Positions 10,982 through 13,610 of a stretch of 42,300 bases of DNA are shown in pieces. Position 1 is the stretch's first letter, and every line of letters begins with the position of its first letter. The notes under the pieces were generated by a model that saw nothing but the letters and a program-made list of their open reading frames with translations, ran no database searches and was not told where the DNA came from. A program made the position numbers and the translations under genes. Source of the DNA: a virus (lineage: Duplodnaviria; Heunggongvirae; Uroviricota; Caudoviricetes); the IMG/VR virus record IMGVR_UViG_2778261297_000006, positions 1 through 42,300 of that record; one strand, 5' to 3'.

Positions 10982-11206
10982 TCATAATTCACTCTTCAAT
11001 ACTTCCAGCTTACTAATCGCCGAAAGATATCCGCGCTGATAGGGCATCATCATTCCTTCGAGCTTGCCACTTCTTAACTCCTCCCTGAGCAATTGTATTG
11101 CTTGATCAATAACCTCTGCCTTAGCGTCCTTTATGGCTTGCTTTCGGGGCTTTGCTTTCTGCTTTGGCAGATTTCTCAAGCATGATGGAATGTATGTCTG
11201 ATTCAT
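10982..11206 (-). CDS. Hypothetical protein (about 74 aa) immediately downstream of N
   Basis: The ATG at 11206 lies 4 nt after the N stop codon (reading order on the minus strand); helical, Lys-rich. Confidence 0.45.
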   Translation of the reverse strand: MNQTYIPSCLRNLPKQKAKPRKQAIKDAKAEVIDQAIQLLREELRSGKLEGMMMPYQRGYLSAISKLEVLKSEL

Positions 11207-11209
11207 CAC

Positions 11210-11593
11210 TTACCTCGCCGTCAGTTGTTTTGATTTCCGGTAGCCTGCCGCGTAAATGGCTACGTTTGGAAGACATACACCAGTTTCTGGTTGCTTATGT
11301 CCAAACTCATTCGCGTACACAATGGCCGCTCGCTCCAGATTGCGTCTGTATTCTTTCTGTTGCCAGATCACGTCCTGTGCCATGAACTTAATTGGCTTAG
11401 CGTCTTCTATGCGCTCAGGCGTTTCGTGAGTACCTTTAGCCTGAATCTGCGCTCTGCTTAGAGTAGGGCGGTGTAATACTTCTGAACTTATTGCTTCTTC
11501 GCGGGCCAGTACGCCGTTAGCTAATGCCTTTGCCTTTAAACGCTCACGACGACGAGAACGTGAATTGCCTTTGAACTGAGTTCTGCGTGTCAT
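11210..11593 (-). CDS. N: Antitermination protein N (P22 gp24 type, 127 aa)
   Basis: N-terminal arginine-rich motif SRSRRRERLKAKA; first gene downstream of pL/nutL; AGGAGG ribosome-binding site. Confidence 0.7.
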   Translation of the reverse strand: MTRRTQFKGNSRSRRRERLKAKALANGVLAREEAISSEVLHRPTLSRAQIQAKGTHETPERIEDAKPIKFMAQDVIWQQKEYRRNLERAAIVYANEFGHKQPETGVCLPNVAIYAAGYRKSKQLTAR

Positions 11594-11854
11594 ATAGACC
11601 TCCTGATGAACTTTGGTGGTGTGGTGGCTGGTAGTCTAGCTCCAGCTTGTTGAGTCTCATTCGGAGGGGTATAACCGGCACCCCAGTGATTTTTCCATGC
11701 GACAACGTGCGCGTTATGGCGGCCTTATCGCCCGCGGCTCCCCATCTCGTCCACGCTATTGCTAGCGTTGGGAGCGCTTCACCGCTCAACAGTAGGTAAG
11801 CACTTGCCAGTGACTAGCTGGCTTCACCACACCCCAAAGTTCACTTTGGTTATT

Positions 11855-11869
11855 GCGCTTTGTCAGCGC
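11855..11869 (-). promoter_or_regulatory. nutL boxB hairpin (P22-type GCGCTGACAAAGCGC on the transcript)
   Basis: The plus strand reads gcgctttgtcagcgc, whose reverse complement matches the P22-type boxB; lies between OL and N. Confidence 0.6.
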
Positions 11870-11940
11870 CGTAGATTCATATTCGAATCGTTGTATATTC
11901 ACCGCCCTGGTGAGTAATGCGTCCTGCTGATGGCTTAAAG

Positions 11941-12023
11941 ATAACTTAGGTTATAGGTGTGGTCAATAACCTAATTTATATTTTATGGTAAATAAGTTAT
12001 AAGTGATGGATAACAAAGGTATT
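11941..12023. promoter_or_regulatory. OL operator cluster with pL (leftward promoter)
   Basis: ATAAC-N4-GTTAT type dyads at 11941..11954 (perfect), 11965..11979 and 12010..12023, the same half-site as in OR. Confidence 0.5.
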
Positions 12024-12152
12024 TTATTTTTGTAAATGTTGCTGATTGATTGGTGTTTGAGGGCTTGCGTGCGGGGTGAAGGTGTTACCTTTGGCTTGAT
12101 GCTTGTCTATGATGAGGATGGTTGATTGGGTGGTGAACGGCAGGAAAAGAAA

Positions 12153-12172
12153 ACCCGGCGCTGAGGCCGGGT
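12153..12172 (-). terminator. Intrinsic terminator ending the cI-side transcript (tImm-like); hairpin is symmetric and may act bidirectionally
   Basis: Stem acccggc/gccgggt with a 6-nt loop; U-rich tract follows on the minus strand directly after the stop codon of the 98-aa gene. Confidence 0.6.
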
Positions 12173-12176
12173 GTTT

Positions 12177-12473
12177 TTAGTCTTTTCTTTTGCTTAGCAT
12201 TTCGTCGATTTCTAAGTCAATACGATATTGATCTATTGCTTTTCTCTCGTTTGGGGTTGGTATTTTATACTGTTCAATTAGATCTGTTGTGTATTTTATT
12301 TCATCTAATGTTATTTTTATATCAGAGAGAATCTCTTTTATATCAATTATATGCTCTTCTTCTTTTGCGCGATTAGAGCTATGTTCAATCATTTGAGATA
12401 GCTTTTTGCTAATGCTTAGCAAAACAAAAAGAATGATGACCAAAACAACAACAAAAACTATCAGAAATTCCAT
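12177..12473 (-). CDS. AT-rich single-pass membrane protein (98 aa) in the rex-equivalent slot downstream of cI
   Basis: N-terminal TM helix EFLIVFVVVLVIILFVLLSI followed by a charged helical tail; GGAGG 6 nt upstream of the ATG; very low GC by eye; terminator immediately downstream. Confidence 0.65.
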   Translation of the reverse strand: MEFLIVFVVVLVIILFVLLSISKKLSQMIEHSSNRAKEEEHIIDIKEILSDIKITLDEIKYTTDLIEQYKIPTPNERKAIDQYRIDLEIDEMLSKRKD

Positions 12474-12513
12474 TATCCCTCCGCACTTCCGTAAGTCTTC
12501 TTCTGATTATCGG

Positions 12514-13221
12514 TTACCAACTATGAGACGACCAGAATACTCTGCCAATAATCCTTACGGTTTCATGAAATTCATCTCTATCCATTACTTCATCCGGGTA
12601 CTCTTCGCGATTTATTGATCTGATTATCACCGATGTAGGGGTGGCGATTAATGTTTTTACTCGTAACAAATCAGACTGGCAAATAGCGTAGGTTTTACCA
12701 TCTCTGATTGTGGTATCTTGCGTGTTAACACCAACAACATCGCCATCGTGAAGGGTTGGTTCCATGCTTTGCCCTACAACCCTAACTAGCTTGGCTGATC
12801 TTTCAGATACTCCCATCTTTTTCAGATAGTGCTTTCTGAAAACCAAAGAGAACTCCGATGATTCCTCTAGCTCGCAGCTACCGCTTCCAGCTGAAAGCGA
12901 AACGTTAAGAAGAGGCAACGCAACAAACTCGTCATCGTTTCTTTTAATGTCTTCCCATACCACAGCTTTTAAAGATGACTCACGGACATTGGATGGTTCT
13001 TCATGTGCACCATCCCTCATTTCACCAATACCAGAACTAAGCCATTCAGGACGCACTTTTAAAGCATTGGCTAATTCAACCATCTTGCGAGATCCGTTTG
13101 TTTTACCGGACGACATCTTCTGTATGGCTGGCTGAGATATTCCAACCATGTCAGCAAGCTGTGATTGTGATACCCCTGCTGAGCTCATGGCTGCATTTAG
13201 TCTTTCTGCGAATGTTTTCAT
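12514..13221 (-). CDS. cI: CI-type prophage repressor (HTH plus LexA-like S24 peptidase domain), about 235 aa from the internal ATG
   Basis: HTH segment SQSQLADMVGISQPAIQKM, C-terminal S24-like VGQSMEPTL block; divergent from cro across operators. Start chosen at MKTFAERL (13221), likely near-leaderless. Confidence 0.85.
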   Translation of the reverse strand: MKTFAERLNAAMSSAGVSQSQLADMVGISQPAIQKMSSGKTNGSRKMVELANALKVRPEWLSSGIGEMRDGAHEEPSNVRESSLKAVVWEDIKRNDDEFVALPLLNVSLSAGSGSCELEESSEFSLVFRKHYLKKMGVSERSAKLVRVVGQSMEPTLHDGDVVGVNTQDTTIRDGKTYAICQSDLLRVKTLIATPTSVIIRSINREEYPDEVMDRDEFHETVRIIGRVFWSSHSW

Positions 13222-13233
13222 ACCCACAAATCT

Positions 13234-13296
13234 ATAACTACGGTTATCCAAAGTAAAATAACAAAGGTTATTGCTATTTTTTATAACTTGAGTTAT
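13234..13296. promoter_or_regulatory. OR operator cluster (three dyads) with pR/pRM
   Basis: ATAACtacgGTTAT at 13234..13247, AATAACaaagGTTATT at 13257..13272 and ATAACttgaGTTAT at 13283..13296, about 24 bp centre to centre. Confidence 0.6.
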
Positions 13297-13332
13297 CTTT
13301 GGTTATAACTAATGACCACAAGAGGTATGCTC

Positions 13333-13557
13333 ATGAATTTAGTAATTCAACGAGCCTTGAAAATTGTCGGTAGCCAAAAGCGCCTTGCCGACAAGTGTGG
13401 TGTAACGCAGCCAGCAGTACACAAATGGCTGAAAGGCGGGTTGGTCTCTCCAGAGAAAGTTACCGCCATCGTTAACGCCACTGGAGGGCAGATCAAGGCT
13501 TACGAAATTCGCCCCGATTTGCCACACCTGTTTCCAAAACCGAATCAGGCAGCATAA
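13333..13557 (+). CDS. cro: Cro-like repressor (74 aa from the ATG at 13333)
   Basis: Small HTH protein divergent from cI; AAGAGG 7 nt upstream of the ATG at 13333. Confidence 0.7.
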   Translation: MNLVIQRALKIVGSQKRLADKCGVTQPAVHKWLKGGLVSPEKVTAIVNATGGQIKAYEIRPDLPHLFPKPNQAA

Positions 13558-13564
13558 GTAACAC

Positions 13565-13610
13565 CGCTCTTTTCACAATGGACATTCGTCCTACGTCGCT
13601 GACAAAGCGA
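13565..13610 (+). promoter_or_regulatory. nutR (boxA-like CGCTCTTTT plus boxB hairpin TCGCTGACAAAGCGA)
   Basis: boxA-like at 13565..13573 and boxB at 13596..13610 with the same GACAAAG loop as nutL. Confidence 0.55.

Follow-up and report, generated by a model that had tools for sequence, protein, structure and literature searches.

The closest described relative of the element treated here is the stem in the leader of the N messenger RNA (mRNA) of phage lambda; the element itself is a long-range helix in the N leader of a lambdoid prophage, whose early leftward control region lies in a caudoviral DNA stretch of 42,300 nucleotides (nt; IMG/VR record IMGVR_UViG_2778261297_000006, positions 1 to 42,300), called the window below. 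The ribonuclease (RNase) III processing site of the lambda N leader was reportedly described by Steege et al. in 1987, Kameyama et al. in 1991 and Wilson et al. in 1997 and 2002, and we take the cuts to lie at +88/+89 and +197/+198, flanking a bulged A. For the nut sites of H-19B, Neely and Friedman reportedly proposed in 2000 that 'reducer' stem-loops remove the intervening nucleotides and so join the flanking functional sites. The lambda N mRNA is positively regulated by RNase III (PMC9032294), the leader is given as RNase III-processed in PMC5371410, which cites Steege 1987, and N with the Nus factors at NutL represses N translation across a 'highly structured' leader of ~200 nt (PMC5725501). 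A further parallel is offered by the ribosomal RNA (rrn) operons, where boxC forms the 5' strand of a leader-trailer helix that RNase III processes, and where a proposed role of the modified polymerase is to carry boxC to its distant partner (PMC10250234, PMC8632103); the parallel with this helix is also drawn from PMC6614797, in which the boxC of nut sites is described as 'an alternating GU sequence following boxB'. The helix in the window is probably its own version of this conserved stem, which lambda uses in the N leader as an RNase III processing site.

In the minus-strand RNA, the segment 11844..11825 (GUGAACUUUGGGGUGUGGUG) is paired with 11626..11606 (CACCACACC-A-CCAAAGUUCAU), which gives 20 base pairs (bp; 19 Watson-Crick and one G-U) with a single bulged A at position 11617. 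The final pair of the helix is 1 nt from the N Shine-Dalgarno (SD) sequence AGGAGG (11604..11599). The first-pass annotation had described a helix of 17-18 bp with one bulge; its arms (11842..11825 and 11627..11608) correspond to the inner 18 of the 20 pairs, so that description was right. The gap of 3 nt to AGGAGG that it gave holds for the arm as it was drawn, and two extra pairs (U-A and G-U) extend the helix to 11606. It also placed about 200 nt of GC-rich leader inside the helix and a boxB at 11855..11869 just upstream, and both hold: the interior (11824..11627) has 198 nt and a GC content of 57%, and the boxB aligns with that of HK106, with the 5' arm beginning 10 nt after it.

Folding of the leader transcript, which had been suggested as a check, bears the helix out. 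In the 381-nt leader, RNAfold gives it in both the minimum free energy (MFE) and the centroid structures, with a mean probability of 0.98 for its pairs. The whole leader has a folding z-score of -3.8, and none of 100 shuffled sequences folds equally well. The energy of the arm duplex is -34.9 kcal/mol in the window and -31.5 kcal/mol in lambda (26/28-nt arm segments), and the window duplex is the most stable of the 24 distinct arm pairs collected in the comparison described below. In the predicted fold boxB is found ~12 nt from the N SD. The long-range helix is thus confirmed as real and thermodynamically dominant.

The leader was aligned with those of lambda, HK97, HK544 and HK633, and HK106 was added through a motif check. 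Lambda, HK97, HK106, HK544, HK633 and the window have identical arm cores, CTTTGGGGTGTG (12 nt) and CACACCACCAAAG (13 nt), which hold the same place in all of them, between the nutL boxB and the ribosome-binding site (RBS) of N. The arm sequence shared by lambda and the window is CUUUGGGGUGUG / CACACC-A-CCAAAG, bulged A included; counted on the sequence, the lambda arms are at +83..+96 and +187..+201 of the pL transcript. The distance between the cores is 94 nt in lambda, 108 nt in HK97 and HK106, and 204 nt in the window, HK544 and HK633, and the sequence between them differs wholly among the lambda, HK97 and window/HK544 types. Judged by this identity and placement, the window arms are homologous to the N-leader arms of lambda, which goes beyond the resemblance in architecture that had first been claimed. 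Placed on the helix, the lambda cuts given above leave 2-nt 3' overhangs, the typical RNase III geometry, in our own check of the sequence.

The conservation of the helix was followed in 160 IMG/VR loci with the N type of the window or that of lambda, together with reference phages and six Salmonella phages. All 165 leaders examined (165/165) have a helix at the same place, with CUUUG...CAAAG as its anchor, and it is also carried by the leader of P22 gene 24 (UUUGG-ACUGGCG / CGCCAGU-A-CCAAA, with the same bulged A) and by the N leader of phi80. In nine representative full leaders the anchor C-G pair has a probability of at least 0.999 in every fold. The duplexes of the 24 distinct arm pairs all have energies between -22 and -35 kcal/mol, with a mean of -29.9 kcal/mol for cognate arms versus -18.6 kcal/mol for non-cognate combinations. 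About nine different sequences occupy the upper stem, each with its complement in the opposite arm: GGUGUGGUG, GGUGUGUG, UGUGUGUG, GGUGAAUGCA, GAUGCGAUG, GAUUGGAUG, GAUGUGGUG, GAAAGCG and AGUAGCGCG. Among the compensated changes, G-C is replaced by U-A in 15 lambda-type loci and by A-U in Salmonella phages; the 15 loci with the upper stem UGUGUGUG carry the compensating C-to-A change in their 3' arm.

For the covariation analysis, 21 arm pairs that contain the bulge were aligned in register and joined by a neutral GAAA linker, which was used because the interiors are not homologous. In this alignment 89.4% of the cells are paired, a share that drops to 37-44% once the 3' partner is shifted by 1-3 columns, and 11 of the 22 pairs change on both sides; the register was fixed from the anchors, so these counts favour the structure, a bias that is addressed by the slid controls and the non-cognate energies. 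The observed covariation score was reached in none of 500 shuffles. RNAalifold, with no structure supplied, recovered 17 pairs and the bulge, with 10 compensatory pairs. The helix is maintained by selection through compensatory change, beyond descent alone.

The variation is not spread evenly along the stem. In the 21 arm pairs, five of the six lower pairs (CUUUGG/CCAAAG) are invariant and one shows a single G-C to G-U change. The pairs above the bulge vary freely, and below it covariation follows the type of N (A-U in H-type and G-C in lambda-type leaders). The bulged nucleotide is A in most leaders, including that of P22, and G in seven type-4 loci and in phi80; it is absent in the 'GAGUAGCGCG' class, which has a perfect stem of 15-16 bp (loci L019, L055 and L081 were compared for this variation). 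A constrained lower stem with its bulge is the pattern that would be expected if the region of the cleavage site is the recognised part.

Two loci outside the main pattern can be described separately. In L064 the 5' arm has a 1-nt G deletion (CTTTGGGTGTGGTG), and the helix is still predicted, at -27 kcal/mol and with a 2-nt bulge. The phi80 leader (L174) combines an HK97-type interior with its own lower stem and a different nutL and N; it is ~410 nt long, and 35 nt separate the end of its 3' arm from the AUG, a gap that holds an extra hairpin. In HK022, the stretch examined contained neither pL nor nun, and its single motif match fell in coding sequence.

The window thus shares with the lambda site the position on the pL transcript, a closing helix of about two turns, the sequence of the arms and the compensatory change. 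The parts of its leftward control region are as follows.

11938..11966, minus strand: pL-type early leftward promoter, with the -35 element TTGACC at 11966..11961 and the -10 element TATCTT at 11943..11938 (promoter scan).
11913..11921, minus strand: nutL boxA CGCAUUACU, H-19B/HK97 type, aligned with the annotated boxA of HK106 (EF120461).
11874..11913, minus strand: nut spacer between boxA and boxB; the MFE and centroid folds both show two local hairpins in it, 11913..11899 and 11889..11874.
11855..11869, minus strand: nutL boxB hairpin GCGCU-GACAA-AGCGC, GCGCUGACAAAGCGC, from the sequence, the predicted fold and alignment with the annotated boxB of HK106.
11825..11844, minus strand: 5' arm of the long-range helix, GUGAACUUUGGGGUGUGGUG, GU-rich, beginning 10 nt past boxB (sequence and folds).
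11627..11824, minus strand: interior cassette, 198 nt long with 57% GC; the predicted fold is a multibranched set of hairpins (sequence and folds).
11606..11626, minus strand: 3' arm of the long-range helix, CACCACACC-A-CCAAAGUUCAU, with the bulged A at 11617 (sequence, folds and covariation).
11599..11604, minus strand: N Shine-Dalgarno AGGAGG, from the sequence, with the AUG (at 11593) 5 nt downstream.
11210..11593, minus strand: N antitermination gene of the H-19B/933W/HK97 type, 127 amino acids (aa), Pfam PF25694 N_peptide (E = 2e-15).

The start of the pL transcript is placed at the A at 11931 by alignment with the pL starts of HK106 and HK544, which are annotated as "5' nt similar to lambda pL transcript", and the 5' sequence of the RNA, AUCAGCAGGACGCA, is common to the window, lambda, HK97 and P22. 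In the GenBank annotation of the HK106 and HK544 immunity regions, pL, boxA and boxB are marked, and no feature is given in the stretch of the helix and interior. Hairpins in the boxA-boxB spacer are found in every H-type and Salmonella-phage leader; those of the window are presumably the dyad symmetries described for the nut sites of H-19B. The GU element GGGGUGUGGUG begins 16 nt past boxB, within the 5' arm, and by its sequence this arm fits the published description of boxC. The N protein of the window is 99-100% identical to the N of 80 IMG/VR loci, of Shiga-toxin (Stx) phages and of HK97.

A further pairing is predicted at the two ends of the leader, between GGAC near the 5' end of the pL RNA (+8..+11; 11921..11924) and G-UCU (11596..11599), which comprises the last base of the SD and the spacer between SD and AUG. 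Its probability is ~0.9 in several H-type and Salmonella-phage leaders, and lambda-type leaders have GGA/UCC; with only 3-4 bp, this pairing may be a folding artefact. A scan of the transcribed strand of 11600..11850 for a GC-rich hairpin with a U run behind it found no intrinsic terminator or attenuator, a weak negative because the same scan also misses tL0 of lambda, a reported weak terminator.

By analogy with lambda, the most likely function of the helix would be that of an RNase III site which ties nutL to the N RBS until it is cut. Transcription from pL would yield nutL first (boxA, the spacer hairpins and boxB), then, ten nucleotides further on, the GU-rich, boxC-like 5' arm, next the structured interior, and last the 3' arm adjoining the N SD. 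Pairing of the arms, at about -35 kcal/mol, would loop out the interior and bring boxB to roughly a dozen nucleotides from the RBS. In the intact RNA the stem would occupy the 5' part of the 30S landing site, and the complex of N, Nus factors and RNA polymerase at nutL would be near enough to repress N translation in cis. RNase III would cut both strands beside the bulged A (by lambda analogy at 11834/11833 and 11615/11614). The cuts would free the interior and separate nutL from the N mRNA, which would keep an unstructured leader of 21 nt and could be freely translated. The level of RNase III would then set the amount of N. Cleavage of the window leader, the positions of the cuts and their effect on N translation are all argued here by analogy with lambda. 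In respect to the energies, opening of the 30S site (-20..+13) is calculated to cost 15.9 kcal/mol in the full leader versus 6.4 kcal/mol after the predicted cut.

Several points weigh against the helix being a lambda-type processing site. For the single sequence of the window, a duplex of the same strength that joins the upstream leader to the 45 nt nearest the RBS arises in 8 of 1000 dinucleotide shuffles, which makes this chance test only moderately strong; it is outweighed by the comparative evidence, which is much stronger. The lambda cleavage coordinates used here are assumed ones, and for this phage, as for any leader of the H-19B/HK97 type, processing by RNase III is argued from sequence homology. 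Opening of the SD..AUG segment is calculated at 4.9 kcal/mol in the full leader versus 4.0 kcal/mol after a lambda-like cut, and the case for direct masking is weak, since in these models the SD and the AUG are barely more occluded in the uncut RNA. As the SD itself is not sequestered, processing and coupling to nutL fits better than simple masking of the RBS. In the predicted fold the top of the helix opens into a multibranch loop and not into an extended irregular hairpin as in lambda, which could change its reactivity towards RNase III. The H-19B-type N differs from the N of lambda in its Nus-factor requirements, so lambda-style autorepression at nutL may not transfer unchanged.

The helix might instead be a structural clamp that escapes cutting in this leader. 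It would loop out ~200 nt and so place the N complex bound at nutL, or else the 5' end of the RNA, beside the RBS, or it would compact the untranslated leader against Rho loading or attack by RNase E. The short predicted distance from boxB to the SD is in line with this, the published model of N autorepression invokes a compact, highly structured leader (PMC5725501), and in the analogous rrn leader-trailer helix the structure outweighs the sequence of boxC (PMC10250234). The multibranch loop of the window interior, unlike that of lambda, also speaks for a clamp. However, the cleavage region, with its bulged A, has the same sequence as in lambda, and processing of the lambda N leader by RNase III is documented. 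The near-invariant lower stem and bulge beside a free upper stem are also hard to explain by clamping alone, which any stable helix could do. We consider a clamp that escapes cutting rather unlikely; clamping and cleavage are compatible with each other, and in lambda both are thought to operate.

The stretch enclosed by the helix behaves differently from its arms. Six interior types, of 38-196 nt, are found in this slot; all pairwise local alignments among them fall within the range of shuffled sequences, and a common origin of the six was ruled out on this ground. One and the same interior may occur with different types of nutL and N: types 2 and 3 are each found with lambda-type and with H-19B-type N, and type 2 is also present in phi80. 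Judged by these combinations, the interior of the N leader is an exchangeable cassette that recombines within the arms.

The stretch 11560..11980 of the window (421 nt) has 100% identity to a stretch of E. coli O19:H7 strain 730V1 (NZ_CP061764), and the leader is a three-part mosaic, HK97/HK106-like from its start to the 5' arm, HK544-like in the interior, and again HK97/HK106-like from the 3' arm to N. Both junctions fall inside shared arm sequences, of 18 nt (CTTTGGGGTGTGGTGAAG) and 15 nt (ACCACACCACCAAAG). Of 5,426 complete E. coli genomes, 6 have the combination of H-19B/HK97-type nutL and N with the HK544/Sf6-type interior, and none of the phage records searched has it. The interior of the window (type 3) is at least 99.5% identical over 196 nt in HK544, HK633, HK446, mEp043, mEp213, Sf6, Sf101, 720R6 and Bas106, with one single-nucleotide polymorphism among 11 copies, and no diverged copies were detectable in the phage collection. 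The phages that share it (~11) belong to different genera, Sf6 and Sf101 being P22-like and HK544, HK633, HK446 and the mEp phages siphoviruses. A tandem leader is present ~480 nt upstream of N in L052 (IMGVR_UViG_3300045988_069239), where a full window-type leader and the first 13 nt of N are followed by 'GCGCAATAACCAAAGTGAAC...', an HK97-type leader and the full N; from its sequence it looks like a recombination scar between two leader types.

Such interiors raise the question of a role of their own. The 198-nt cassette might act as a decoy for a host RNA-binding protein or nuclease, or as a trans-acting regulator; it would then be a real functional unit, a structured RNA of ~200 nt excised by RNase III, with the arms as its processing stem, as in the rrn leader-trailer helix. 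The architecture of the locus does parallel the boxC/leader-trailer helix of rrn, the interiors act as exchangeable cassettes, and the near identity of type 3 in ~11 phages of different genera and morphotypes, without diverged copies, would suit a conserved function. Recent horizontal spread would also give high identity, though, and the six unrelated interiors that fill the same slot imply that it tolerates almost anything structured. The HK97-type interior, the only variable one, gave one compensatory pair in the covariation test. No Rfam family, transfer RNA or coding signal emerged from the searches run: in Rfam (release 15) the stretch 11000..12600 gave no match on the transcribed (minus) strand at E up to 10, a scan of the interior for transfer RNA and transfer-messenger RNA gave nothing, and the three open reading frames (ORFs) that overlap the interior, a minus-strand frame of 81 aa and two plus-strand frames of 50 and 52 aa, had no Pfam match. 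Surveys of prophage small RNAs place these elsewhere, and no small RNA from an N leader is reported in the surveys or in a review of prophage small RNAs. Taken together, a functional interior appears decidedly unlikely. Its broader form, in which the cassettes would be cargo RNAs of ~40-200 nt excised by RNase III and the stem a universal docking and processing socket for recombined cargoes, we hold to be improbable as well.

The 81-aa minus-strand frame, which has a TTG start, was judged spurious, as it is without an SD and its C-terminus varies with the flanking N type. In Bas106 the same TTG frame (L176 485..667; window 11789..) is auto-annotated as a 60-aa hypothetical protein, and from its sequence this ORF, too, is probably spurious.

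That the arms are DNA recombination linkers at module boundaries for swaps of leader cassettes, with an incidental complementarity in RNA, is very improbable: the mosaic junctions exactly inside the shared arms, the same interiors beside different nutL/N types and the tandem-leader recombinant would all suit linkers, but a linker has no need of self-complementarity, whereas all of the ~9 upper-stem sequences keep their pairing, point changes are compensated and non-cognate arms pair poorly. As the sole role of the arms it is largely refuted by the covariation; that leaders recombine within the arms is more readily taken to follow from the arms being conserved.

The remaining features of the region are those of a lambdoid immunity locus. 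The nutR site is at 13565..13610 on the plus strand (boxA CGCTCTTTT, boxB TCGCTGACAAAGCGA), between cro (13312..13557) and a cII-like gene (13696..), and no GU-rich, boxC-like sequence follows its boxB. The Cro-like protein (13312..13557, plus strand) has its best score with the YdaS_toxin family (PF15943, E = 1.5e-17) and forms the immunity pair with the repressor (12514..13251, minus strand), a protein of 245 aa with helix-turn-helix and Peptidase_S24 domains and a TTG start. Between pL and a 98-aa ORF (12177..12473, minus strand), a bidirectional terminator-like hairpin, ACCCGGC...GCCGGGT, is present at 12153..12172 on both strands, where HK106 and HK544 have their annotated 'Timm' terminator. 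A weak Rfam match to rnk_pseudo (E = 0.51) corresponds to this hairpin, and the weak plus-strand Rfam matches near it were taken as chance.

With the helix read as a lambda-type processing stem, the N leader of the window can be annotated with confidence from end to end (pL start, boxA, boxB, boxC-like 5' arm, exchangeable interior, 3' arm and RBS), and one would expect N expression in this prophage to be linked to the RNase III of its host, as it is in lambda. The comparison provides natural swaps and compensatory mutations for a classic regulatory element, and it predicts which parts are needed for recognition by RNase III: the lower six pairs and the bulged A, with any complementary sequence in the upper stem and any of at least six cassettes in the interior. 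The element extends to the H-19B/933W-type N leaders of Stx phages, in which the level of N gates the lytic cascade and hence the release of toxin. There is apparently no Rfam family for this element, and the arm alignment could seed one. The comparative picture, with its invariant lower stem and bulge, covarying upper stem, swappable interiors and boxC-like arm, would be a modest addition to what has been described.

Among the known systems, the leader-trailer helix of rrn shares with the window a GU-rich boxC, placed after a nut-like boxA and boxB, as the 5' strand of a long-range helix that is a target of RNase III and encloses a structured RNA. It differs in that it surrounds 1.5 kb of ribosomal RNA and serves ribosome assembly and not control of the translation of a downstream gene. 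In rrn the boxC has a different sequence (UCUGUGUGGG) from the window's, and the relation is one of analogy without homology; that the polymerase delivers the 5' arm to its partner in the window leader, as is thought for rrn, is speculation drawn from this analogy. The reducers of H-19B embody the same idea of a stem that removes a spacer, and the window has such hairpins between boxA and boxB. They are, however, local and inside the nut site, whereas the window helix is long-range, lies downstream of boxB and abuts the RBS.

The nearest relatives by sequence divide the window leader between them. HK97, HK106, 933W and other Stx phages have the same nutL, N gene and arms, with flanks 96-98% identical, but an unrelated interior with 108 nt between the arm cores. 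HK544, HK633, HK446, mEp043, mEp213, Sf6 and Sf101 carry the same cassette and arms, in N leaders that are unannotated, but joined to a nutL and N of the lambda type. In lambda itself, as in the window, the predicted fold has the helix closing off all of the leader between its arms, and the differences are ones of dimension and content. The contiguous helix has 16 bp in lambda and 20 bp in the window, it starts ~18 nt after boxB in the former and 10 nt in the latter, and it ends 7 nt versus 1 nt from the SD. The interior of lambda is an irregular hairpin of ~90 nt, while that of the window is multibranched, has 198 nt and is without detectable sequence similarity to it, and the nutL and N are of the lambda type in one and of the H-19B/HK97 type in the other. 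The helix of the window is a known device with a different, larger interior, set in an H-19B/HK97-type context of nutL and N, and its presence there would not surprise a specialist.

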